Counted from the first letter of the stretch, positions 12,760-60,934 are shown. The stretch: DNA of 64,000 nucleotides from an uncultured virus (IMG/VR IMGVR_UViG_3300025782_000004) (IMGVR_UViG_3300025782_000004); one strand, 5' to 3'. Program-made: numbers and translations. The notes: a model not told the origin generated them from the sequence alone.

Positions 12760-12999
12760 CTAATTTCCTTTTAATTTCCATATAATATGTTCTGTAGTTT
12801 CGTGATATCTGAACTCAACCACAGGTTCGCCTGGGCCTGTCCACATTGCTGTGCCTTCGTAGACAAACTGTAAAAATAACCAACGACCGGTTAAGGAACT
12901 ACGTTTTGGTAACCATAAAAACTTTAATCGCCAATGGGCACGATTATAGAAAGCATCGTAAGTTTCATCCATGCCTGTATATAAGCCTTGTGGAAACAT
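12760..12999 (-). CDS. Hypothetical protein
   Basis: ORF between queE and the 12758 gene; start uncertain. Confidence 0.55.
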   Translation of the reverse strand: MFPQGLYTGMDETYDAFYNRAHWRLKFLWLPKRSSLTGRWLFLQFVYEGTAMWTGPGEPVVEFRYHETTEHIIWKLKGN

Positions 13000-13859
13000 T
13001 ACTTGCCCCAGCCATTGCCCCATAGGTCCACATGCAATCTGGGACTATAATTAAATCCACGTTCGCAACAGATATTGGCAATGTTTAGTTTATTTGATTC
13101 GTATGGATCAACAACACCACCCTGCGGCATTAAGTATACGGTACCTTTAAATCCACCTGCACGGAAAGCATCCACAGCACGTGTAGCTTCATTAACATGA
13201 TCTTCAGTTTCAACAACAAACTTAAGATATACATGTCCATATGTTTGATAGATATTAACAATTAGTGGCTTAATAGCATCATCCCACGATTCGCCTGATG
13301 CTGATAGTTTAGCACTGACTGAGAATGTAACTTCACGACCTGAACCAGCATCGGCCCAGTCAATCAAGTAATCGCGGAAGTCTTCATGTAATTCTTGAGT
13401 ACCATTTGTTTCAAACGTAATGTTCTTTAAGTCTGCCATACGTGGATGACTTAACAAATCAGCATAAGCACGTTGCCAGCCTAAAAGTGGCTCACCGCCA
13501 GTAATAACTAAATGTACATCATTGCCATTGTTCTGTACCCAACTACCGTTGGGAGTTAGGGCTAACATCTTGTCTACAAGTTCATCTGTAGTGTATGTTG
13601 GAGACAAATGTTTGAACGCAGGATGCCATGACGCATATGAATCACAGCCTGTTTCTACTAAAGGAAGATCTAAAAAATCTTTATACAGTTCTACCTTTTT
13701 AGCAACTTCATCTGCACCTGTAGACTTTTCACCAGGCTTACACCCAAACCCTGAACAGGTAAAGTTACATCCATAAGTTCTTAAGAATACACTAGGTACT
13801 CCCACAAAGCGACCTTCGCCTTGTAGACTGTAAAATATTTCACTGACTTTAATCTTCAT
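12999..13859 (-). CDS. queE: 7-carboxy-7-deazaguanine synthase (radical SAM)
   Basis: EIFYSLQGEG, FLRTYGCNFTC...CDS, ITGGEPL, ETNGT and PRLHV motifs. Confidence 0.92.
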   Translation of the reverse strand: MKIKVSEIFYSLQGEGRFVGVPSVFLRTYGCNFTCSGFGCKPGEKSTGADEVAKKVELYKDFLDLPLVETGCDSYASWHPAFKHLSPTYTTDELVDKMLALTPNGSWVQNNGNDVHLVITGGEPLLGWQRAYADLLSHPRMADLKNITFETNGTQELHEDFRDYLIDWADAGSGREVTFSVSAKLSASGESWDDAIKPLIVNIYQTYGHVYLKFVVETEDHVNEATRAVDAFRAGGFKGTVYLMPQGGVVDPYESNKLNIANICCERGFNYSPRLHVDLWGNGWGK

Positions 13860-14127
13860 ATATTTTTGACCATTCAACTAATTTTTGACTCTTACGCAAC
13901 TGCGCCGCACGCAATTCTGCATCTGTATATACCTGATGTGCTTTGAGCAATTCTATTAATAGTGTAACATCTCCTAGCTCTTGAGTCAAGTGTTCTCTTT
14001 GGGTACCACCGTCTTTGTACCGATTTTCCATACCAAAGCGGCGGCATTTACTAATAGCCTGTATAACCTCAGCACACTCCTCTTGGAGTATGTCTAAGAT
14101 TTCATTAACCTTCGAAGAGGTCTTCAT
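13849..14127 (-). CDS. MazG-like nucleoside triphosphate pyrophosphohydrolase
   Basis: EECAEVIQAISK...ELGDV motif; start uncertain. Confidence 0.75.
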   Translation of the reverse strand: MKTSSKVNEILDILQEECAEVIQAISKCRRFGMENRYKDGGTQREHLTQELGDVTLLIELLKAHQVYTDAELRAAQLRKSQKLVEWSKIYED

Positions 14128-14611
14128 TCCACTCACGATGTCCTTCACGGAACGCCATATTGCTTTGTGTTTCACGTACTTCTACACGATAACACCAAAG
14201 TCGATCAGCTTCTGCTTGACCCCACATGTCGGGAATATAAACTCCGTTTACAAACTTGTATAGTTGATCGGCTAGACCTTCACAACCTAGTTTAGGTAGG
14301 ACGGTTAGTTTAGCTAGATTCTTTTCTTGCAATAATTTGTATGTTTCAAGCTCAGGATCATCCTCGGCTACTAATAATGTATGATCAAATTGACTTTCAA
14401 GAATGCCTTTGAGTTCTTTAAGACCGCCGTAGTCGGCAGCCCAATTACGCACATCTAGGTCATCTGTACCAAAGTAAAATTTCATACTAAACGAATAGCC
14501 GTGAATTAAGTTACAGTGACTATCAGCTCGCCATTGGCGATATGCACAGGGAAATGCATCGTGATACTCTTTAGTACTTGTGTACTTGTACTGCCTAGAT
14601 TGGTTTGCCAT
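14105..14611 (-). CDS. queD: 6-carboxytetrahydropterin synthase
   Basis: CNLIHGY, DYGGLK, FDHTLL and EVRET motifs. Confidence 0.88.
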   Translation of the reverse strand: MANQSRQYKYTSTKEYHDAFPCAYRQWRADSHCNLIHGYSFSMKFYFGTDDLDVRNWAADYGGLKELKGILESQFDHTLLVAEDDPELETYKLLQEKNLAKLTVLPKLGCEGLADQLYKFVNGVYIPDMWGQAEADRLWCYRVEVRETQSNMAFREGHREWNEDLFEG

Positions 14612-17158: not shown

Positions 17159-17338
17159 TTATTTAATATCCCAAATACCTTTTATGTGTTTAATAACTGT
17201 TTGACAGGATTTGACTAATTCTTTATTTGTTGGTGTGCATTGTTGTTCAAATTCAATAATGCCTTCCATTCGTTGAATAGCAAATTCATCCATAAAGTGT
17301 GTAAGGCTTGTATGTTTGTCGTAATGAATTGTTTTCAT
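17159..17338 (-). CDS. Small protein, 59 aa (insertion cargo)
   Basis: Manual translation MKTIHYDKHTSLTHFMDEFAIQRMEG...; ATGA overlap. Confidence 0.5.
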   Translation of the reverse strand: MKTIHYDKHTSLTHFMDEFAIQRMEGIIEFEQQCTPTNKELVKSCQTVIKHIKGIWDIK

Positions 17339-17433
17339 TTCTCTTGTGCCTTTCTTATAATTGGTCTAAGCATAAACACCCATACAGCGTGACTAACCCA
17401 CCCAACAATGATACCCCAAACGAATGCGTTCAT
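17335..17433 (-). CDS. Small membrane peptide, 32 aa (insertion cargo)
   Basis: MNAFVWGIIVGWVSHAVWVFMLRPIIRKAQEK; GGAG SD. Confidence 0.5.
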   Translation of the reverse strand: MNAFVWGIIVGWVSHAVWVFMLRPIIRKAQEK

Positions 17434-17529
17434 TCTTCAACTCCGAAATGTTTAATACCACTGTTTTTACAGCAACCAATTTTAACTTTAATCATAAATA
17501 AATTATACAGCAATCCTATAGGAAAGTCA

Positions 17530-18198
17530 ATGTTTTTAGATAACAAATATACTAAAGTTTATTACCAAATTATTAATCGAGCATTAACACGACCATACAA
17601 AAAAGTAAAGAATGATGGATATCAAAAACATCATATTGTTCCAAAATGTATTGGAGGCACTGATTCTACTGATAATCTTGTAATACTCAGTTATAAAGAA
17701 CATAGAGTATGCCATTGTTTACTGATCAAAATGCAACTTACAAAATCAGCAGAAATCAAAATGCGACACGCCTACGGATTTTTTAATAAGAGTAGCAGAT
17801 ATAATGGGCCACGATATAAACGAGGGAAAGACAATATATTTTCTACTAAGGAAATCGTCGATCAAGTTCGTAAGCGTATGAAAGAAAACAATCCAATGAA
17901 GGATCCACTCTCTCAACAAAAAAGAGTCGATACCTGGAGAGCAAATAGAGCCGCACGAGATTACATTCCGCCGCGAGTCCTTAAGGACAAATTCATTACG
18001 CCAAGCGGCATTTTCAAAACCAAAAAAGAAATACAAAAAGTTGTAGGTATTCCAGAATGGACACTAAACACTATCTACAACGATTTAGATGCTTACCCTG
18101 TTACAAACGGCAGGGCAAGCAAAAAAATCAATCACTTAAATATCGATCCAACAAAAACTTGGAGAGACAATGGGTTTGGATTACTTGCCGTTTCTTGA
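17530..18198 (+). CDS. HNH homing endonuclease
   Basis: HHIVPKCIGG..DNLV.L...EHRVCH; start MFLDNKY with AGGA SD and TAAATA upstream. Confidence 0.85.
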   Translation: MFLDNKYTKVYYQIINRALTRPYKKVKNDGYQKHHIVPKCIGGTDSTDNLVILSYKEHRVCHCLLIKMQLTKSAEIKMRHAYGFFNKSSRYNGPRYKRGKDNIFSTKEIVDQVRKRMKENNPMKDPLSQQKRVDTWRANRAARDYIPPRVLKDKFITPSGIFKTKKEIQKVVGIPEWTLNTIYNDLDAYPVTNGRASKKINHLNIDPTKTWRDNGFGLLAVS

Positions 18199-18984
18199 TT
18201 GTAACGCAATATTGTCAAAGAATTCTTTTTTGGTAGCAGGATCTTTAAGGAATGCTCCGCGAAGAACAGTAGTTTGAGTCAAAGAGCTGTGTGCCATTAT
18301 GCCCCTATTGGTGCAACAACCATGTTCACATTCTATATATACACCAATGTTATCGGAATCAGTGGCCTTGCTTATTTCACGTGCTATATCGTTACATAGC
18401 TCTTCTTGTAAAGTACCACGGCGAGCACACCATTGAGCAATGCGAGTATACTTGCTAAGACCAATAAGTTTGTTTGCGGCAATGATCCCAATATAAGCCA
18501 CTCCACTAACTGGCTGATGATGATGGCTACACATACTACGAAGTTCAGAGCGTACAACCAACATACCCTCGTATCTATCTTCACTGTCGTTTGGAAACGC
18601 TGTGGCGTCTGGTCTTGGTGCATATCTACCTTCCATAATTTCATTAAAATACATCTTGGCCAAGCGACGTGCTGTGCCTTGGCTATTTGGATCAGTTTCT
18701 CGATCGATTAATAGGGTATCTAGCACTTGCTCAAACGCTTCTGTAGCTTCATTAATAAGAATTTCTTTATCGCTTTCGCTTACATAATCACTGATATTGT
18801 CTCCAGCCCAGAAACGTTTCTTGTCACGCTTCATATTGAAACGGATAGCATCAGCAAGATTTGCTTCTTCATATCCTTTGTCGCTCATATTCATTGCGGC
18901 ATCTTCATATCCAGGATGATATGGTGCTTCTTGTACTAGTAAATCTGCTATTTTTTGTTCTTCTGGTGATGCGTAGTTAGGCAT
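18181..18984 (-). CDS. folE: GTP cyclohydrolase I
   Basis: SMCSHH, GLSKY.R, LQEEL and EHGCC..RG motifs; start MPNYAS with GGAG SD. Confidence 0.93.
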   Translation of the reverse strand: MPNYASPEEQKIADLLVQEAPYHPGYEDAAMNMSDKGYEEANLADAIRFNMKRDKKRFWAGDNISDYVSESDKEILINEATEAFEQVLDTLLIDRETDPNSQGTARRLAKMYFNEIMEGRYAPRPDATAFPNDSEDRYEGMLVVRSELRSMCSHHHQPVSGVAYIGIIAANKLIGLSKYTRIAQWCARRGTLQEELCNDIAREISKATDSDNIGVYIECEHGCCTNRGIMAHSSLTQTTVLRGAFLKDPATKKEFFDNIALQSRNGK

Positions 18985-19024
18985 TCGTTTCTCCGAGTTA
19001 GTGTCGTGGATGACTTTATTGTAT

Positions 19025-19053
19025 ATTATAAGGTATTTAGATCTGTGTGTCAA
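19025..19053 (-). promoter_or_regulatory. Consensus sigma70 promoter for folE, with a TAAATA late motif in the spacer
   Basis: TTGACA-N17-TATAAT. Confidence 0.8.
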
Positions 19054-34954: not shown

Positions 34955-35917
34955 TTATTTTGGTCTTCTTTGTGTGTAGTCATCCAATGACGAATAAAAT
35001 TGTGGATCTTTTGCTGTTTGCGGCCAGGTGTTGGTTTTTTGTAAATTACGGTGAGCTGCGTATGAATAAACATCCTTTGCAATATTGACATACTGTTGTA
35101 AAGTTAAATTGCTTTTTCCTTTGTTAATAATCCAAAGAACCCAAACAACATTTCCTGGTTTATATCCGCCGCCTGGGTTGATTTGATCAGGACTAGGGCT
35201 AGTCCACTCGCCGGCAGCTTTCAAAAACCCTTTTCCTATACTGGCACCAAACGGCAAACCACTGTAAGCACAACGTTCCTGCTGTAAGTCGTGAAAAATA
35301 TACCAGGCTTGCTCGATATCAAATTCTATTCCAGCTTTTTGACGTCCTAACATTCCTTGAATACTTTGTGCCCAATACTGATGCACGGTACTGTTTGGGT
35401 TAAACCCTTTACTTACAATTGATGTAATTTGCTGGTCCCATACCTGTGATGTTGGAATCCTAACAGGTTCCGTTGCTCCAGGTAACAAACTAGCTACATT
35501 TGAAGGGGGCACTTTAGTTGACGCCAACAAAACTTTTTTTAATGTTGAAATATTTCCTAAGACATGTTCGCAAAGACTTATAAAACTTGCCTGCGGCATA
35601 TTCATTTTTACTGAATTTACACACCAACGAACAAACTGCACATTGTTGGCGGTATATCCAGCTGCAGGATTGATTTGATCGGCACTGATCATGTCCCAGT
35701 TGCCGGCTCTCTCAAAACTAAATGGTTTACCTGTTAGAGCACACACTTGGCCTTGTCTTTGGAATATTGCCCAGGCTTCTTCTAACGACATTTGTGCTTT
35801 TTTGCGAAGGGTTGATCGCCAGAAATTTACAAACTGCACGTGTATAGGGTTGTTTGCATCGTACCCAGCAGTTCTGGCGGTATATGGATTGGCTTCGACA
35901 ATTTCAAACGTTTTCAT
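34955..35917 (-). CDS. Protein with two tandem HNH-like domains and a capsid-targeting-like N-terminus
   Basis: Repeated CA.(T/S)G.PF...S.DQINP..GY...NV..V.W..N..K; N-terminus MKTFEIVEA. Confidence 0.65.
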   Translation of the reverse strand: MKTFEIVEANPYTARTAGYDANNPIHVQFVNFWRSTLRKKAQMSLEEAWAIFQRQGQVCALTGKPFSFERAGNWDMISADQINPAAGYTANNVQFVRWCVNSVKMNMPQASFISLCEHVLGNISTLKKVLLASTKVPPSNVASLLPGATEPVRIPTSQVWDQQITSIVSKGFNPNSTVHQYWAQSIQGMLGRQKAGIEFDIEQAWYIFHDLQQERCAYSGLPFGASIGKGFLKAAGEWTSPSPDQINPGGGYKPGNVVWVLWIINKGKSNLTLQQYVNIAKDVYSYAAHRNLQKTNTWPQTAKDPQFYSSLDDYTQRRPK

Positions 35918-35927
35918 ACTGGTTTCT

Positions 35928-35935
35928 TATAAATA
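35928..35935 (+). promoter_or_regulatory. T4-type late promoter
   Basis: Exact TATAAATA immediately upstream of a structured RNA. Confidence 0.65.
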
Positions 35936-35939
35936 CCTA

Positions 35940-36046
35940 GTGCGGTAACAGTACAGCGTGATGCATCAAAGAACCCGAGGATTTCCTGTACTTCCCCTCT
36001 GGGCAACAACGAATTGGCAGACGAGCTTTGTAGTGCATCGCCGCAC
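35940..36046 (+). ncRNA. Candidate pseudoknotted small RNA, about 107 nt
   Basis: Closing stem GUGCGGU/GCCGCAC, then GAUGCAU/GUGCAUC, CAAAG/CUUUG and CCCGAGG/CCUCUGGG; pseudoknot GUACAG/CUGUAC; G-U pairs favour the + strand; U-tract follows. Confidence 0.65.
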
Positions 36047-36048
36047 AC

Positions 36049-36792
36049 TTATTTTTTTTTACGCCCTTGGCAATGGGCACGTTGACTAAATCCTTTTGGG
36101 TGTGAACAATCAATACTGCGTTTGTATTTTTTAGACCATTTTTCATCTAAGACTGATTCATTTTTAGAACGACCAGATTTCATATTAGCACACCAATGAT
36201 ACATCTTGGCACGTTCGCCTGAGGCACGTTTGGCTTTGGCACGTAGACTGGTCACACTACCTTTACAGCTGGCGCCTGCACGTTTGACACGCCCTGGACG
36301 ACTTTTGCCTTTGACCTTGCCGTCGTGAAAGTTTTCTTTTAAGAATGTATCAGCTAGTCGTTTGCACAATTCTCGTAGTTTTGCGTTGTCTGTTTCTATG
36401 CTATCGTCGTGATCTTGTGTAGGATCTTTATATCCGCAATAGACGTGCTCTATGCCTGCATCAGCAATTATATCTTCACAACTTTCGCCAGACCGGTCAT
36501 TCATTGGACGATTACAAGGACTTAAGGTAGTAACAATTATACATTCTGGAGTAATATCACCGTAAGCATCAATGGCTGCACGTTCAGCATGTACATATTT
36601 GTCATCAATTTTATAACTAGTACGGCAAACTTTTTGACCTTCGGGACCTAATACACAAGCACCAACCATGCCATAATGGTCATTGTCTTTTTCTTGATTG
36701 TCAAGAACTAACTCGCATAATTCAGCAAGTATAGCATCTAATTCTTCTCGGGGATCACTAGACGGGGCTGTAAGGATTTCTTGGATAATCAC
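36049..36792 (-). CDS. Zn-dependent deaminase (RibD/CDA-like) with basic C-terminal modules
   Basis: VGAC, HAE and TLSPC...SC motifs. Confidence 0.7.
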   Translation of the reverse strand: MIIQEILTAPSSDPREELDAILAELCELVLDNQEKDNDHYGMVGACVLGPEGQKVCRTSYKIDDKYVHAERAAIDAYGDITPECIIVTTLSPCNRPMNDRSGESCEDIIADAGIEHVYCGYKDPTQDHDDSIETDNAKLRELCKRLADTFLKENFHDGKVKGKSRPGRVKRAGASCKGSVTSLRAKAKRASGERAKMYHWCANMKSGRSKNESVLDEKWSKKYKRSIDCSHPKGFSQRAHCQGRKKK

Positions 36793-37197: not shown

Positions 37198-37598
37198 TTT
37201 TTCGTTTTAAGTTGTATAGCACCAACTCGACGTGTTGGACTTGTTTTGTTTACTGTGTCTACTTCATCTGAGCCGTCTGGTGTAAGTTGTGTGTGATTAG
37301 CTTCCCAACCAAATGCTTTAGCAGCTTGATCTAAAATCTTACGCTCGCCTTCACTGTAGGCCACAGCAACAAGACTTTGTCCATTTGGACCATCTTTTTT
37401 TGGCTCGTGTTCATATTTGCCATCTGGTGCACCAGCACCACCTAAGAAGTAAGCAGCAAAACGCCAGGGGTGATATGGACTAGAGTTATCTAGCTTATGG
37501 TGACTACGCATACCCGGTGTAGCACTTTGATGGCTATCTGGAATACCGTCGTTGTCCTGATCCTTTATATCTTCGGTGATAATTTCGTTTATTTTCAT
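37194..37598 (-). CDS. Hypothetical virion-associated protein
   Basis: Start MKINEIITED. Confidence 0.65.
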   Translation of the reverse strand: MKINEIITEDIKDQDNDGIPDSHQSATPGMRSHHKLDNSSPYHPWRFAAYFLGGAGAPDGKYEHEPKKDGPNGQSLVAVAYSEGERKILDQAAKAFGWEANHTQLTPDGSDEVDTVNKTSPTRRVGAIQLKTKK

Positions 37599-38029
37599 TT
37601 TGTAGTAGCCCTTAACATCCATGCATGTTTTTGGAACGCATCCATACGTTCTGCTAGGAAGTTTGAGAAGCCATGCTGTCCTTCTGCTTCAGCTAGATCA
37701 TAAACACGTTTAAGAATTTTAACCATGTTTTCTGCATCTGCTAGCAATTCATCAACCATTGCTATGCCAGGCATAACTTCAGTTTCATCTTCAATACGTG
37801 TTAGTACACTAAAGCGACTATTGCTACCGGGAGCATAACCGCCTAAGCTACGAATCTTTTCTGCAAATTCATCTACTGTACCGTAAACTTCTGAATAGAT
37901 AGTTTCAAATAGACTATGTAGTTCTTGGAAGTTGATGCCTTCTACGTTCCAATGAAAGAAATGTGCTTTCAAATAGAAAGTATATTGACTAGCAAATCCA
38001 ATCTTAGCGGCTTTGATTAACTGTTCCAT
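37595..38029 (-). CDS. dps: Dps/ferritin-like protein
   Basis: HFFHWNVEG..F..LH..FE..Y, D..AE and K..WML motifs. Confidence 0.9.
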   Translation of the reverse strand: MEQLIKAAKIGFASQYTFYLKAHFFHWNVEGINFQELHSLFETIYSEVYGTVDEFAEKIRSLGGYAPGSNSRFSVLTRIEDETEVMPGIAMVDELLADAENMVKILKRVYDLAEAEGQHGFSNFLAERMDAFQKHAWMLRATTK

Positions 38030-43086: not shown

Positions 43087-43116
43087 AGTAACAGTTCTCT
43101 ATTACTATATTTATCT

Positions 43117-44673: not shown

Positions 44674-45399
44674 TTATTTATCGGCCACTACAACCAGCTC
44701 GTGAATATTTGAAACCAAACCTGGAGAAATTAATGCAATAAAAGTAGTGACACTAGGATCATTTGTGTAAAAATATCCATTCCACATGTAGCTACTAGAT
44801 TTGGTTAGCATGGTCAAAAATCCATTGGGTATTTTAACCATTTCTGGCCCAAGAGAATTAAGATAGTTTAGTATGCTGTCCTTAACGTCTTTCGAATACT
44901 TACCATCACGGAGCACAACTTTATGGCTATAGCCAAGATTCTTTTTGCGTATAATAGCACCAGAATCTAATAAATTCTTTGAAGTATCATCTTCTGGGCC
45001 AGTGATATTTTCAATATAGACGTGGTCTTTGGGACTAAAATATGTATCAATTATAGTTGTTAATTCTTCTTCGGAATTAGCGTATAGTTGTAGTCGAGGC
45101 TCTTCAATTCGCATTTTAATATTAGGTAATCGCTGATGCCTTAAGGCTTTCATACGCTCAAGGAATTCAGGATCAGCCTTGTCTATATTTTTTGCTAGTC
45201 TTTCTCCCCACCATCCTTTGATATTTACGGATAAGACTCTGCGATGTTCTAATTCATCAACCACTGACCTTTTACTGTCTACAGCACGACCAGCTGGACA
45301 AAATACGATTAATCTATATAGATACCGCCCATAAAACTTTTTAGAAGTATGATCCCGTACAATCTTAGGATTGTACAGAATCCATTTTGATATATCCAT
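44674..45399 (-). CDS. Hypothetical phage protein
   Basis: About 240-aa ORF; start uncertain. Confidence 0.65.
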   Translation of the reverse strand: MDISKWILYNPKIVRDHTSKKFYGRYLYRLIVFCPAGRAVDSKRSVVDELEHRRVLSVNIKGWWGERLAKNIDKADPEFLERMKALRHQRLPNIKMRIEEPRLQLYANSEEELTTIIDTYFSPKDHVYIENITGPEDDTSKNLLDSGAIIRKKNLGYSHKVVLRDGKYSKDVKDSILNYLNSLGPEMVKIPNGFLTMLTKSSSYMWNGYFYTNDPSVTTFIALISPGLVSNIHELVVVADK

Positions 45400-47653
45400 T
45401 AGCATCAATCATAGGAGTTGCTGGGATAAATTGACCCAGAGCAGTAAATTCAAAAGCATCATCCCGCCAATCGACTTCAATTACGGTGTGTGCAGGAATA
45501 GTGTCGAACAAAATCTTTTTACTTAGTGGTACTTTAATCAAATCGTTAATCTTACGACCTAAAGGACGAGCACCCATTTTACTATCGTAGCCAACTTCAG
45601 CTAAATGATCTGTTGCTGCTTCAGTTAACCGAATCTTCAGTGATTTTTCACTTAGTAGATCATTCATTTCGTTAATAAACTTAGCAACAATCTTCTTAAT
45701 ACTGATAGTATCTAACTTATTAAACTTACAAACACCATCTAAACGATTGCGGAACTCTGGTTTAAAGAAGTCTTTAACTGCTTTGTCATCTTCACCAGAC
45801 TTTTGTAATTCACGACCAAAGCCAATGTTATTACGTTCGTTATCTGCAGCACCAAGGTTACTGGTAAGAATAATAATGGCGTTACGTGCATCTGCTTTTT
45901 TACCGTTACTACTTGTAATAGTACCTTCGTCCATTAACTGTAGTAAGATATTCATTACATCCGGGTGTGCTTTTTCGACTTCGTCAAATAGAACAACACA
46001 GTTAGGATTCTTTTCAATGTCGCTGATTAATAATCCGCCACCAAGATTTGAGTCATCATATCCAACATAACCTGGAGGAGCACCAATTAATTTAGCGGCT
46101 GCATGCTTTTCTTGATATTCACTCATATCGTAACGTAGCATCTTCATGCCCATACCTTCGGCCAACAATTTAGCAAGTTCTGTTTTACCAGTACCAGTTG
46201 GTCCCAGGAATAAGAAATTACCAATTGGTTTGTTCATTGATTTTAGTCCAGCACGTGCTACATAAATTTTATCCAGGACTGTATCTACTACAGAATCTTG
46301 TCCGTATAGTTTAGTTTTGATTGTTTCTTCCAGCCCCACAAGACTTTTAGTTGATTCAGATCCAATTTGTTCTGCGGGAATCTTAGTAAACTTACTGATA
46401 ATGTCAACGATATGACTCTTACGCACAGTCCATGCTATGGCATTAATTTTTAATTTAGCTGCGGCTGTGTCAATTAAGTCAATGGCTTTGTCTGGTAACT
46501 TCTTGTCTGGTTGATAACGAACACTCAAATCAACAGCGGCATCAATAGCTTCATCACTGATTGACCCTTCGTGGAATGCTTCAAAATATTCTTTAAGGCC
46601 ATGTAAGATTTCTTTAGCTACTGCGGGAGTTGGTTCCTCGATGGTCATACGTACAAAGCGACGCATAAGGGCACGATCTTTTTCAAATGATTGTGTGTAT
46701 TCTTCCCAAGTGGTTGATGCAATAACTTTAATTTGTCCTTTGGCCAGTGCAGGTTTAATCATATTAGCAAAGTCTACTGAACTGTTACTAGCTGAACCAG
46801 CTCCACGCATTTGATGTGCTTCATCAATAAACAAGATGCACTTGCCTTTGGCCTGTAGTGCACCAATGACATCTTTAAACTTTTCTTCAAACTCACCACG
46901 ATATTTAGATCCAGCAAGCAATGACCCAATATCTAAATTCCATACTGTGTAGTCGCGTAAGTATTCGGGAACACTACCCTCAACAATATTGCGGGCAAGT
47001 CCTTCGGCAATAGCTGTTTTACCCACACCGGCATCACCAACCATTAAGATATTACACTTGTTACGTTTGGCCAAGACCTGTGCTATTTCATCTAGTTCAA
47101 ATTCACGTCCGACTACTGGATCAATTTTACCGTCTTTGGCCTGCACATTTAAATTTTCACAGTATTCACGTAGAATATCATCGGCACGTGCATTGGCCGG
47201 CAAACGTTTGGCTTTACTTTCTACATAATTTTGATTATAGAATTCAACCAATTGACTGCGTTCTAATCCATATTTGATAAAGAAATAACTTGCGTGGCTA
47301 TTTGCTTCGCTGGCTATACTTAAAAAGATATCAATGACTTGTACATGATTACGTCCACTAAACAGGACCTGTGTAAATGCACGATTAAAAATTCTTTCAA
47401 GACTGTGAGTTTTCTTTGGAATATGATCTGCGTCAGGGGAAACTAGATATGTTTGTTTATTTAAATAATCCTCGAGGTCTTTAACTAGAGCATCAGCATC
47501 TATACCATAGGCCACAAGTAAATCATTAAATGGTTTAAATGTTACAAGTCCGTGTGTTAAGTGTTCTATGGTAACATATTCGTGGTTATAATTTTTTGCT
47601 AGATCAGTTGCACTAGCAATAATAACTTCAATTTCTGGATTGTGTTGGATCAT
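45365..47653 (-). CDS. clpA: ATP-dependent Clp protease ATP-binding subunit
   Basis: N-domain, two AAA modules (GDAGVGKT, GPTGTGKT), LIGAPPGYVG and the IGF ClpP-docking loop. Confidence 0.92.
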   Translation of the reverse strand: MIQHNPEIEVIIASATDLAKNYNHEYVTIEHLTHGLVTFKPFNDLLVAYGIDADALVKDLEDYLNKQTYLVSPDADHIPKKTHSLERIFNRAFTQVLFSGRNHVQVIDIFLSIASEANSHASYFFIKYGLERSQLVEFYNQNYVESKAKRLPANARADDILREYCENLNVQAKDGKIDPVVGREFELDEIAQVLAKRNKCNILMVGDAGVGKTAIAEGLARNIVEGSVPEYLRDYTVWNLDIGSLLAGSKYRGEFEEKFKDVIGALQAKGKCILFIDEAHQMRGAGSASNSSVDFANMIKPALAKGQIKVIASTTWEEYTQSFEKDRALMRRFVRMTIEEPTPAVAKEILHGLKEYFEAFHEGSISDEAIDAAVDLSVRYQPDKKLPDKAIDLIDTAAAKLKINAIAWTVRKSHIVDIISKFTKIPAEQIGSESTKSLVGLEETIKTKLYGQDSVVDTVLDKIYVARAGLKSMNKPIGNFLFLGPTGTGKTELAKLLAEGMGMKMLRYDMSEYQEKHAAAKLIGAPPGYVGYDDSNLGGGLLISDIEKNPNCVVLFDEVEKAHPDVMNILLQLMDEGTITSSNGKKADARNAIIILTSNLGAADNERNNIGFGRELQKSGEDDKAVKDFFKPEFRNRLDGVCKFNKLDTISIKKIVAKFINEMNDLLSEKSLKIRLTEAATDHLAEVGYDSKMGARPLGRKINDLIKVPLSKKILFDTIPAHTVIEVDWRDDAFEFTALGQFIPATPMIDANGYIKMDSVQS

Positions 47654-47661
47654 AAAAATAT

Positions 47662-48522
47662 TTATTGTGGATTAGTTAATGAACGAACTATTTCTAATTG
47701 TTCTGTAGTAAGGTTTTGTGGTACAGTCAATGCTACTTCAACGTATAAATCTCCTCGACGATCTGAATTTAATTCGTATAAACCTTGTTCTGGTAATCTA
47801 AATTTTATACCAGGTTGAGTTCCGGCAGGTAAAGTTAATATAAATGTTTTGCTATCTAATCCCACTATGGTAATATCACCACCTGCTGTTGCTAGTAAAC
47901 AGTTTACACTAGCTCGGTGGTATAAGTCAATGCCATTGGTAATAAATCCGTCGGCATTATGTACTTTAAAATGAACATAAAGGTCACCTCGAGGTAAAGT
48001 ATTGAATAAATTATCTCCAAGTCCGGAATATTTAATTTGTGTACCATTGGTCACACCCCTTGGTATTTTAACTTCTACTGTTTCACGATGACCGTTAGTA
48101 GTCTGTACACTGATAGTTTTTGATTGTTCTTCTAAGGTTGTAACTAGGGGTAATGCAATTTCAATACGCAGGTCTTTGTTGCGTCTTTGTTGTTGTCTAG
48201 CTTGTGCAAAAGGATCTCCGCCAAACCCAAAACCAAAATTTCTAAATATTTCGTCAATGTTGGGATGATTCACGCCACCACTGTGCCAACGGAATATCAC
48301 ATTCTCATCACCGACACCACCACCAAAGCCATTACGTTGCATGTCATAGTGTTGACGTTTATTTGGGTCACTGAGTGTGTCGTATGCTTGTTGTATTTCT
48401 TGAAACTTGGCCTTGTCTCCACCCTTGTCAGGATGATGCTGACTAGCTAGTTTTCGATAAGCTCGTTTGATTTCGTCGGGAGAAGATTTGTCCCCAACCC
48501 CTAAAATTTCGTAATAATTCAT
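47662..48522 (-). CDS. DnaJ/CbpA-type co-chaperone (no zinc finger)
   Basis: J-domain HPD, G/F region and C-terminal GDLY repeats. Confidence 0.9.
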   Translation of the reverse strand: MNYYEILGVGDKSSPDEIKRAYRKLASQHHPDKGGDKAKFQEIQQAYDTLSDPNKRQHYDMQRNGFGGGVGDENVIFRWHSGGVNHPNIDEIFRNFGFGFGGDPFAQARQQQRRNKDLRIEIALPLVTTLEEQSKTISVQTTNGHRETVEVKIPRGVTNGTQIKYSGLGDNLFNTLPRGDLYVHFKVHNADGFITNGIDLYHRASVNCLLATAGGDITIVGLDSKTFILTLPAGTQPGIKFRLPEQGLYELNSDRRGDLYVEVALTVPQNLTTEQLEIVRSLTNPQ

Positions 48523-54059: not shown

Positions 54060-54608
54060 TTAGCGTATGATTCCAGCCAGATTTCTTAGAGATTCTGTGT
54101 AATCATTTTTGGGTGCTTTGGTAGTAACTTCTACACCTGCTACAGCTTTTAGTTTGTCAATGGCTTCTTGACCGTATTCTCTCTCGTAGGCTTCTGGAGT
54201 TAGGGGAATTAAGTCTTGTAGGGATTCTAGGCTTAAAGCAGTTTCTTTGTGAGCTTTATAGTAACGTACACGCCAATCTTCAATTTGTTGATCAGTTACA
54301 TTCATTAGGTCATTCATCAAGCTCATGATATTTTCGGGAGCAGATTTGTCACGATCAAGTTCAACAAACACGATATAACTACCGTCTTCCATTTCACCTG
54401 AACTGAGGTCGGCATCTAAAACCCAGTCGTAGCCTTTTTCAACAAAACTAACCAGATCAGCAGCTGATTCTTTGGCACTGAGTTTAAAACTTAGTACAAT
54501 AACGTCTGAGTCGTCGCCCAGTTTGCTTTTAAATTCATCAACGTGTAATTCAGGGTGAACCAAACGCTTTAGATCGCCTAGTTCTAGGCCTTCAAATAAC
54601 TTATGCAT
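54060..54608 (-). CDS. Hypothetical phage protein
   Basis: DEFKSKLG.D...VFVE; start uncertain. Confidence 0.7.
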   Translation of the reverse strand: MHKLFEGLELGDLKRLVHPELHVDEFKSKLGDDSDVIVLSFKLSAKESAADLVSFVEKGYDWVLDADLSSGEMEDGSYIVFVELDRDKSAPENIMSLMNDLMNVTDQQIEDWRVRYYKAHKETALSLESLQDLIPLTPEAYEREYGQEAIDKLKAVAGVEVTTKAPKNDYTESLRNLAGIIR

Positions 54609-55128
54609 TTTGAACATTTTCCTCAGGACCTGACACGTTAGAATTTTCATCTTCACCAGTTTCATATGCTTGGTCAATATCTTCTAGGTCAACTGTACCA
54701 CTAGCTAATTCTAAAGCACCCTGCTCAATGTCTTTCATCAGCTTTTTAGGCATAACAATAGTAACTAACCAAACTGGTGTTTGAACCATTTTAGGTACTT
54801 TAGTTCCTGGTTTAAAATCCTTGGGATCTTTTACTTTTTTTGTGTGCTCAAAAAAGTCTTGTTTGTACTCAACATTACAGTCGTATTCGGCTAATCGTGC
54901 TGCACCCTTGGGGTTTGGCATTTTTTTGTAGGGCCACATAAATGTGCAGGTCACAAAGTATTTTTCGTAGATAGGACCCTCTACAAGTTCACCTTGCTTC
55001 CAATGTTCAAAAGCATAAAGATCGAGTTCATCTAAGACACGTTCAAAATCCAGCAGGGTTGAGACTGCTGAATCCGTCATGAATATTTCTTTTGTATTGT
55101 TTAGTAGGTCTCTAATATTAGCCGGCAT
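54601..55128 (-). CDS. Hypothetical phage protein
   Basis: DFERVLDELDLY....W..GEL.EGP; TAAATA upstream. Confidence 0.75.
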   Translation of the reverse strand: MPANIRDLLNNTKEIFMTDSAVSTLLDFERVLDELDLYAFEHWKQGELVEGPIYEKYFVTCTFMWPYKKMPNPKGAARLAEYDCNVEYKQDFFEHTKKVKDPKDFKPGTKVPKMVQTPVWLVTIVMPKKLMKDIEQGALELASGTVDLEDIDQAYETGEDENSNVSGPEENVQNA

Positions 55129-55149
55129 AGTACAGTTATTTATCTGATA

Positions 55150-58877: not shown

Positions 58878-59645
58878 TTGTCTAGACGTCAAAAGAGAGC
58901 TTCCGCTCTATTAGTAAACGATAGCAGTATCAGCAGTTTCAGCAGTAACAATACAGTAAGAATGGACTTGTATCAAAAAAATTCAAAACCTCAACAACGT
59001 CCAATAACACTTCTACCAAAAAGCCTAACACAAGAAACATATATTGATCTATTAACTGATCCTAGCCGCCTGATAGTTTTTGCAACAGGTCCAGCAGGTA
59101 CCGGTAAAACTATGTTGGCCGTACTAGCAGCACTCAAGGCCTTTAGATCGGGTGCATGTGATCGCATTGTGGTTACCAGACCAGCGGTAGGTGTTGATGA
59201 CGAAGAGCATGGATTCTTACCTGGTGATTTGAATGAAAAGATGGCTCCGTGGACCCGTCCTATATTTGACATCATTGGAGAATACTATCGCCAAAGCGAA
59301 ATTGTACGTATGCTAGATGAACAACAGATTGAGATATCTCCCCTGGCATATATGAGAGGAAGAACATTTAAAAACTCGTGGATTATTGCAGACGAAATGC
59401 AAAACGCGACACCAAGTCAGATGAAAATGTTACTCACACGATTAGGCGAAGGCTCAAAGATGATTGTTACTGGCGATACACGTCAGGCAGATCGTAGCGA
59501 AGGCGAAAACGGATTATTGGATTTCCAAAATCTAGTAGAAAGCTATAAAAAGTGTAACTACGTTAGTGGTGTAGAATTTGAACACCGAGACATTCAACGC
59601 CATCCTGCGGTACTTGAAATACTTAAGATTTACGGGGAGGTTTGA
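58878..59645 (+). CDS. phoH: PhoH-family ATPase
   Basis: GPAGTGKT, GFLPG, YMRGRT, DEMQN, LTRLG, GD..Q.D and RH motifs. Confidence 0.93.
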   Translation: MSRRQKRASALLVNDSSISSFSSNNTVRMDLYQKNSKPQQRPITLLPKSLTQETYIDLLTDPSRLIVFATGPAGTGKTMLAVLAALKAFRSGACDRIVVTRPAVGVDDEEHGFLPGDLNEKMAPWTRPIFDIIGEYYRQSEIVRMLDEQQIEISPLAYMRGRTFKNSWIIADEMQNATPSQMKMLLTRLGEGSKMIVTGDTRQADRSEGENGLLDFQNLVESYKKCNYVSGVEFEHRDIQRHPAVLEILKIYGEV

Positions 59646-60916: not shown

Positions 60917-60934
60917 CCACCCCATAAATACTAG

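Follow-up and report, generated by a model that had tools for sequence, protein, structure and literature searches.

What occupies the gap at positions 35918-36048 of the uncultured virus IMGVR_UViG_3300025782_000004, between two open reading frames (ORFs) of the minus strand? The DNA analysed here is one stretch of 64,000 nucleotides (nt), which as a whole we call the window, and an earlier note made from its sequence alone had placed in this gap a self-contained RNA unit with nested stems on the plus strand. That unit is upheld, with a promoter box just upstream. We find that an RNA gene sits in the gap on the plus strand, that its product is homologous to the Agrobacterium RNAs At1 and Ti2, and that a phage promoter-type box lies 4 nt upstream of it. 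A covariance model built from 49 phage sequences of this RNA (model R1) has a single match in the whole window, on the plus strand only, at 35940-36046. The parts of the RNA gene are as follows.

35940-36046, plus strand: RNA core of the At1/Ti2 family, 107 nt; full-length match to R1 with 75.5 bits, E 9e-22.
35928-35935, plus strand: promoter box TATAAATA, exact, 4 nt ahead of the first paired base.
35940-35946, plus strand: 5' strand of helix P1, GUGCGGU, pairing with 36040-36046 (GCCGCAC); 7 base pairs (bp), one of them G.U.
35950-35956, plus strand: 5' strand of the pseudoknot, AGUACAG, pairing with 35986-35992 inside the P3 loop.
35960-35966, plus strand: 5' strand of helix P2a, pairing with 36033-36039.
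35967-35971, plus strand: 5' strand of helix P2b, pairing with 36026-36030.
35974-36002, plus strand: P3 hairpin, 35974-35980 pairing with 35996-36002, with a 15-nt loop that holds the 3' strand of the pseudoknot.
36003-36018, plus strand: P4 mini-hairpin with loop AACGAAUU and pairs G36003-C36018, C36004-G36017 and C36007-G36016; present in the Rfam consensus structure.
36007-36026, plus strand: near-invariant core CAACGAAUUGGCAGACGAGC, made of the P4 loop and the junction strand leading back to P2b.
36026-36046, plus strand: 3' strands of P2b (36026-36030), P2a (36033-36039) and P1 (36040-36046), the partners of the 5' strands above.
36051-36059, plus strand: U-run of nine T, 4 nt past P1, a possible terminator tail.

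Is this an RNA gene, or a sequence that only looks like one? Free-energy folding (minimum free energy against shuffles) finds no excess stability, with z-scores of -0.73 on the plus strand and -0.62 on the minus strand, and it is the comparison among relatives, not folding energy, that sets the RNA beyond chance. A 17-letter core pattern, CAACGAANNGGCAGNCGAGC, was run over a collection of viral contigs and returned 81 loci, 70 of which were judged homologous by eye and gave 49 distinct sequences; the 11 others had no flanking likeness and were dropped (L016, L018, L019, L026, L035, L039, L043, L054, L057, L059 and L072). In the MAFFT alignment of the 49 phage sequences, a five-helix model that includes the pseudoknot has 86.7% of its cells paired, against 35-55% with slid partners; 27 of the 30 pairs show changes on both sides, and the covariation value is 0.574, against at most 0.18 in the controls, with none of 500 shuffles as high. 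A longer pattern, run over species-representative genomes, hit at least 120 places, from which 80 bacterial loci (L083-L162) were fetched for analysis, and in an alignment of these 80 copies fitted to R1 the nested helices are 94.7% paired. The compensatory changes in homologues on which the earlier note had staked its reading are therefore present both in the 49 phage sequences and in the 80 bacterial copies.

This support extends to the single helices. In P1, whose strands GUGCGGU and GCCGCAC had been picked out before as the paired ends of the RNA, all 7 pairs have compensatory changes in the phage set and again in the bacterial set, and all 7 pairs of P3 covary in both sets as well; in the window, P3 carries one C.U mismatch or a bulged U at 36000. 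P2b cells are 98% paired in the phage set, through variants such as GAAG/CUUC, CCUG/CGGG, AGUG/CACU and GGCG/CGCU, and G.U pairs are frequent (17 of 49 at one P2b pair). The pseudoknot, first read as GUACAG/CUGUAC, has a core of 6 bp in the window (GTACAG at 35951-35956 with CTGTAC at 35986-35991), or 7 bp counting A35950-U35992, and it proves true: 5 of its 6 pairs covary in the phage set, where 90% of cells are paired, and 5 of 6 have compensatory changes in the 80 bacterial copies, where 97.8% are paired. The bacterial support is independent, because R1 was built without the pseudoknot, which thus stood outside the search model. The P4 pairs are invariant and hence allow no covariation test on pattern-selected sets; one compensatory case, GGG..GCC, occurs in L297, a copy found without the pattern. 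The core CAACGAAUUGGCAGACGAGC is likewise invariant by construction in the pattern-selected sets, and in 11 copies found by the model alone it is almost unchanged, nearly letter for letter; its unpaired part stays near-invariant across hosts of 40-70% G+C while all the helices drift. Covariation thus shows the fold, in which the closing helix P1 leads through P2a and P2b to a three-way junction with P3 and P4, and a pseudoknot of 6-7 bp joins the P3 loop to the linker between P1 and P2.

One could still suppose that there is no RNA gene here, and that the palindrome is due to chance, to a terminator of the minus strand or to a DNA site linked to the HNH endonuclease encoded next to it. The unremarkable z-scores on both strands and the adjacent HNH gene agree with this, but compensatory changes in five helices across two independent sets, the relatives that have no HNH gene, and the detection of two family members by Northern blot (Wilms et al. 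2012, PMC3384568, cited here and below from parts of that paper) lead us to set it aside almost entirely. That the plus strand is the coding strand for the RNA is shown by two G.U pairs, U35946.G36040 and U35966.G36033, which become A.C on the opposite strand just as the earlier note had seen, by the side on which the promoter box stands, by the strand of the R1 match and by the strand to which At1 was mapped.

To which family does the RNA belong? ARAGORN finds 0 tRNA or transfer-messenger RNA (tmRNA) genes in the window, in agreement with the first impression that it is neither. The comparison with Rfam that had been proposed gave a divided answer: at gathering level (cmscan) no family reaches its cut-off anywhere in the window, but in E-value mode a 601-nt search of 35700-36300 returns a sub-threshold match to RF02496 (Atu_At1) at 35936-36046, with 37.0 bits and E 2e-4, over model positions 1-108. 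The family is represented in full length, with P1, P2, P3 and the core CAACGAA..GGCAG.CGAGC all present in the window, and the reciprocal search agrees, as R1 finds At1 with 94.7 bits, Ti2 with 54.1 bits and 80 of 80 bacterial loci with 57-106 bits. RF02496 itself scores At1 at 115.3 bits and Ti2 at 80.5 bits. By Rfam's own cut-off Ti2 (L301 1071-1180; pTiC58 173670-173779) is a paralogue of At1, a kinship of which no statement was seen in the consulted parts of Wilms et al. 2012 (PMC3384568). Among the other phage copies, 10 of 19 pass the cut-off (60.7-98.4 bits) and 9 of 19 fall below it (43-56.2 bits), the T4-like class being lowest at 43-48 bits. Since the phage scores grade from 37 bits up past the cut-off, the window copy lies at the extreme of an unbroken series; by these scores it appears as the most divergent RF02496 member among those compared. 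We are nearly certain that the window RNA is a real member of the At1/Ti2 RNA family. The novelty once claimed for it does not survive, as the family is already catalogued and the window RNA is not a new class.

The other identity proposed at the outset was a ribozyme, self-cleaving or otherwise, and a compact pseudoknotted fold with an invariant core, present in many copies per genome (3 and 4), in varied gene contexts and in phages, would suit one, as would the 3' ends of At1 and Ti2, which lie at the foot of P1 without a terminator. No Rfam 15 ribozyme family matches, however, and hammerhead, twister, twister-sister, pistol, hatchet and HDV (hepatitis delta virus)-like ribozymes are found neither at gathering level in the window nor at E<=10 in 35700-36300. 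The 5' ends of At1 and Ti2, two RNAs that Northern blots detect, were moreover mapped as transcription starts by differential RNA-seq (PMC3384568), and exonuclease trimming is a simpler account of 3' ends at a stable helix. We give the ribozyme scarcely any credence.

What would drive the RNA in the phage? The promoter box that the earlier note had read as exact at 35928-35935 is indeed there on the plus strand, and the exact TATAAATA occurs once in the 64-kb window against 6 copies expected, and likewise once in the nearest record (G001), whose RNA is 100% identical. The looser NATAAATA has 15 copies in the window, where 23 would be expected, and 12 of the 15 lie on the minus strand, which bears the genes. 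Because 13 of these 15 boxes lie no more than 45 nt upstream of a start codon or of the RNA, with matching orientation, the box is a recurrent promoter-type element of the phage, and its being rarer overall than chance suggests a promoter class that is avoided elsewhere in the genome. Boxes of this kind precede, for example, a virion structural protein gene (54601-55128) and a Lon-like protease gene, and a similar box stands 4-7 nt before P1 in relatives. The NATAAATA sites mostly read GATAAATA or CATAAATA, as at 55137-55143, 47659-47665, 43108-43114 and 60924-60930. The RNA carries the best copy of the phage's promoter-type box. In T4-like phages such boxes are late promoters; we take the TATAAATA-type box to be a putative T4-type late promoter, and by the type of its box we infer that the RNA would be made late.

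How is the RNA placed among genes? The window comes from a large T4-like phage, whose DNA polymerase is closest to those of Sinorhizobium phage Phosso (52%) and Agrobacterium phage Atu_ph07 (48%). The genes around the RNA had been called late genes, but those that adjoin it are genes of replication and nucleotide metabolism. The neighbours, none recognisable as late, are a DNA polymerase gene and the following three.

34955-35917, minus strand: HNH / endonuclease VII-like gene, 320 amino acids (aa), PHROG 3322/1035/3118; its start codon lies 10 nt from the promoter box.
36049-36792, minus strand: deoxycytidine monophosphate (dCMP)/cytidine-deaminase-like gene, 247 aa, Pfam PF00383, E 3e-8; it converges on the 3' end of the RNA.
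37595-38029, minus strand: Dps-like mini-ferritin gene, Pfam Ferritin PF00210, E 1.5e-23, PHROG 3636; 1.5 kb from the RNA.

The HNH gene was seen only in contigs identical to the window (L265/L277), the RNA standing directly beside an 86-aa gene in L211, L266 and L284, and because relatives are without it the HNH gene seems to have been inserted recently, as a homing endonuclease. At 17308-18198, on the plus strand, the window has a second ORF of the homing-endonuclease type. Other genes of the window include those for the Lon-like protease (45365-47653) and PhoH (58878-59645), and QueE-like, QueD-like and GTP-cyclohydrolase genes at 12999-14611 and 18181-19053 on the minus strand, a set that suggests, from gene content, that this phage may make a 7-deazaguanine DNA modification. 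Every phage copy found comes from uncultured viral contigs; a blastn search of cultured phage genomes returned nothing for any of three queries, namely the window RNA, a copy of class A (defined below) and a 2.1-kb piece of the locus. Gene maps drawn for 69 viral loci show at least four phage gene settings for the RNA.

Class A, 24 loci: the RNA on the same strand as, and directly ahead of, the genes for a 163-aa protein, for the large terminase and for the portal.
T4-like class, 16 loci: DNA polymerase, c6, c5, the RNA on the opposite strand, c3.
Class C, 8 loci: a Dps-like ferritin gene immediately upstream of the RNA on the same strand.
Class D: the RNA after an endolysin gene and converging on ribonucleotide reductase; some loci have a clear terminator.

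In class A a -10-like box, TATACT or TACAAT, stands before the RNA and a further promoter-like motif after it. The class A RNAs (L207-L257) are flanked by a motif close to ACATACACACGT, at about 45 nt on the 5' side and 25-40 nt on the 3' side; the motif also precedes the downstream genes and may be a phage-specific promoter. In class C the RNA has a conserved GUUAAG linker, and its UAA serves as the stop codon of the ferritin gene. Of 80 viral loci, 13, belonging to two phage lineages, have a Dps-like gene no more than 3.5 kb from the RNA, against 0 of 80 bacterial loci, and gene and RNA are possibly linked; the Dps-like proteins of the two lineages share about 30% identity (loci L208, L217, L238, L246, L270, L278, L280 and L285). 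In L269 and L218 the RNA gene lies within a cluster of 6 and 8 tRNA genes, respectively, and in L269 it is co-oriented with them. In some relatives, as in L236 (5044-8544), the gene converging on the RNA encodes an 1166-aa fusion of a GNAT acetyltransferase with HAD/polynucleotide-kinase-like parts, which in the window is split into several smaller ORFs.

The arrangement of the T4-like class raises the question of antisense action, in which a late plus-strand transcript, crossing the gap within a minus-strand replication operon, would interfere with, or mark for cleavage, mRNA that reads through from the deaminase-like gene into those for the HNH endonuclease, the 86-aa protein and DNA polymerase. 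The RNA does run opposite to its neighbours at the same place in all 16 T4-like loci, and the HNH start codon is a mere 10 nt from the promoter box. Such action leaves the conserved fold unexplained, however, and in the other phage classes and in bacteria the RNA is co-directional with its neighbours, so that antisense could be at most an added effect; as the whole explanation we give it little credence.

What do the bacterial copies add? Among the matches listed, almost all titles name Rhizobium, Agrobacterium, Mesorhizobium, Ensifer, Shinella, Devosia or Phyllobacterium, a few name Sphingomonas or Sphingopyxis, one is a Rhodobacteraceae metagenome-assembled genome (MAG), and two fall outside the class by title alone (an Arenimonas MAG and a "Mycobacterium sp." assembly). 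A copy is present in at least 1 of 151 genomes of a class-level sample, that one being the starting genome, where scoring covered just 25 of the roughly 1000 first-look candidates in each genome, and in at least 12 of 41 genomes of a family-level sample, also a lower bound. More than one copy per genome occurs, with 3 in an Agrobacterium genome and 4 in a further genome, and the neighbours are ordinary, varied chromosomal or plasmid genes, not prophages. Upstream of 36 of the 80 copies stands a strict GGAAC-N15-18-[CG]GTT, which we take to be the general-stress (EcfG) promoter, and many more have near-matches. Across all copies, the same fold is found behind stress-type promoters, a vir box, phage NATAAATA boxes and -10-like boxes; some copies stand alone, and others form a 5' leader or a 3' trailer. 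A hairpin with a T-run follows within 110 nt in 21 of the 80 bacterial copies. Twenty-six same-strand ORFs of at least 60 aa start no more than 70 nt after a bacterial RNA, and 15 of the 26 have Pfam domains typical of stress regulons, at 17-68 nt downstream of the RNA; the domains are DUF2934, SDR, GFA, ExoIII-like, alpha/beta-hydrolase, DUF427, PNPOx-like, ParD-like and DUF2171. P1 is extended by at least 4 pairs in 56 of the 80 copies, whereas shuffling the partners gives 18 copies on average and 29 at most. In most bacterial copies (L083-L162 flanks) the 5' strand of this extension (P0) is GAGG-like and its 3' strand CCUC-like. In some leaders (L093, L103) the CU-rich strand could instead mask the ribosome-binding site downstream, though inconsistently.

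The leader-type copies among these would suit a ligand-sensing leader, and such a leader is the main rival to the account given below: the RNA would be an aptamer (an orphan riboswitch) that gates read-through or translation of the bacterial stress or virulence genes behind it, and in phages a conditional terminator or a ligand sponge. An invariant junction, covarying helices and a pseudoknot are the usual look of an aptamer, at least 15 of the 80 bacterial copies stand close ahead of same-strand genes with Pfam domains, the P1 extension offers, in some leaders, a strand that can pair with the ribosome-binding site, and in the largest phage class the RNA is co-directional with the terminase and portal genes just behind it. 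Ti2, too, has a promoter in common with atu6155-virK and far outnumbers that mRNA, and premature termination is a possibility that the authors raise (PMC3384568). Yet the downstream genes are without a common pathway (SDR, GFA, hydrolase, exonuclease, DUFs), the candidate alternative pairings are heterogeneous, no data point to a ligand, and many copies, that of the window included, have no downstream gene on their own strand. The window copy does not stand in the position of a 5' leader, since what lies downstream is the antisense of a minus-strand gene, and it weakens the ligand-sensing reading because nothing lies behind it. We consider this leader unlikely as the explanation of the family.

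What has been published on the two named members? At1 comes from the At plasmid of Agrobacterium fabrum C58, measures 113 nt by sequencing and 115 nt by Northern blot, and reaches its highest level in dense cultures (Wilms et al. 2012, PMC3384568); its published ends, 55274-55161, fall 5 nt before and 3 nt after the R1 match. Ti2, also of 113 nt, responds to acetosyringone by induction through VirA/VirG and outnumbers every other transcript of the Ti plasmid (PMC3384568), and its published start coincides exactly with the start of the RF02496 model. It is transcribed with the atu6155-virK operon from one common promoter, the short RNA far outnumbering the mRNA, and whether it arises by premature termination or by processing is a question that the authors pose (PMC3384568). 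No T-run directly follows At1 or Ti2. The RpoE2-dependent small RNAs of S. meliloti in the consulted part of Schlüter et al. 2013 (PMC3616915) are listed in a form not mappable to the At1/Ti2 family.

RNAs of discrete size with their own promoters, as At1 and Ti2 are described (PMC3384568), also invite comparison with classical base-pairing small RNAs, in which case the P4 loop AACGAAUU or the junction strand AGRCGAG would pair with host or phage mRNAs and alter their translation or decay. Pairing is a common mode of alphaproteobacterial stress small RNAs, such as GsrN, whose pairing target is the katG leader (Tien et al. 2018, PMC5869019, consulted in part), and two phage lineages carry a Dps-like oxidative-stress gene together with the RNA. 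A seed unchanged in every letter across varied base compositions would, however, need an equally invariant target, and none is known; the conserved stretch is also embedded in the junction and is probably structured. We hold this to be improbable, to much the same degree as the sensing leader.

How, then, is the RNA best explained? The account that we favour, and consider somewhat more probable than not overall, is that the plus strand encodes, as a transcription unit of its own, a stable and structured RNA about 107-110 nt long, which is a phage homologue diverged from At1 and Ti2 and acts in trans. The phage would transcribe it, probably late, from a start at about 35940-35942 to an end at or just after P1, and the product would be a discrete, stable and autonomous folded particle. 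Its near-invariant junction and loop (CAACGAA-NN-GGCAG-N-CGAG) would form the surface or pocket that binds a conserved partner in the cell, whether protein or small ligand, with no long antisense pairing in the action of the RNA. In this way the phage would supply an RNA normally made by the host under general stress, or would titrate the partner of that RNA. A binding surface fits better than a pairing seed because the helices drift while junction and loop stay near-fixed across base compositions; the step to a conserved partner bound in trans is the more tentative part of the account, and we would put its chances at a little under even. A bolder proposal goes further, namely that the At1/Ti2 fold stands for a functional RNA class not recognised so far, a portable module for ligand sensing or catalysis by which phages, using their own promoters, sense or manipulate the stressed cell; that this class would span alphaproteobacterial stress and virulence promoters and at least four phage lineages, sometimes with a Dps-like ferritin, belongs to the same proposal, to which we grant a small chance.

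Several observations weigh against the favoured account. The T-run that the earlier note had seen after the RNA is there, as nine T, but it doubles as the lysine-lysine-lysine-stop codons of the minus-strand ORF at 36049-36792, a simple terminator scan made no call at it, and it is not conserved, being common only to L067 among the listed viral relatives. With 37.0 bits, the window copy stays below the RF02496 gathering score of 60 bits, a cut-off that is operational, not biological. The leader-type bacterial copies fit a cis-acting sensor equally well. Late timing rests on the analogy with T4 and on one virion gene with the same box. The two nearest cultured phages, Phosso and Atu_ph07, have no copy of the RNA, which is therefore not essential to the lineage. 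Deletion of Ti2 left tumour formation unaltered (PMC3384568, data not shown there), and in the literature on RF02496, At1, EcfG/RpoE2 small RNAs and Agrobacterium Hfq we found no function for the family and no partner.

Why does the locus matter? At1 and Ti2 entered the catalogue in 2012 and still have no function assigned, and the phage copies give a second, independent handle on the role of the family, in which Ti2, the strongest virulence-induced transcript of the Ti plasmid, now has its place. Several unrelated groups of uncultured phages carry the fold under phage promoters, and because hosts and their viruses alike have kept it so carefully, the RNA likely acts on a core process of the cell under stress. 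Should phages have done no more than borrow a regulatory RNA from their hosts, the locus would remain a clear case of the capture of a stress-regulon RNA by a phage. As far as our searches show, what is new here is the covariation-backed pseudoknot, which has no counterpart in Rfam's printed consensus structure, the membership of Ti2, the split of the copies into leader-type and stand-alone, and the four phage settings with their own promoters and a recurring Dps-like neighbour.

Among known systems, the stress RNA GsrN of Caulobacter is described with a C-rich 5' loop and usually lies beside ecfG-nepR-phyR (Tien et al. 2018, PMC5869019), whereas the At1-family fold has no C-rich exposed loop, and an extracytoplasmic function (ECF) sigma gene lies within 3 kb of 1 of the 80 bacterial loci; on these descriptions no link between GsrN and the family emerged. 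Trans-acting small RNAs derived from riboswitches or leaders are likewise short, abundant 5' species ahead of an operon, with a conserved fold that stands in a leader or alone, and a leader-derived trans-acting RNA was raised as a possibility by Wilms et al. 2012 (PMC3384568); unlike these, the window copy has no gene behind it, and its family is without a ligand or regulon. Ti2 keeps P1, the pseudoknot, P2a and P3 as in the window RNA and is an abundant, discrete RNA that ends at P1, but its junction core is degenerate, P2b is lost, and it is driven by a vir box as the leader of atu6155-virK. A further close counterpart is At1 (RF02496), for which the printed consensus draws a small hairpin where covariation supports the pseudoknot. 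The window RNA differs from At1 in the linker before the pseudoknot (AAC rather than UGUCAA), in a 2-nt bulge in P4, in the lack of the P0 extension and in its promoter, a phage NATAAATA box instead of the GGAAC..CGTT type; it shares with At1 the length class, the helices P1-P4, the junction sequence and a promoter directly before P1.

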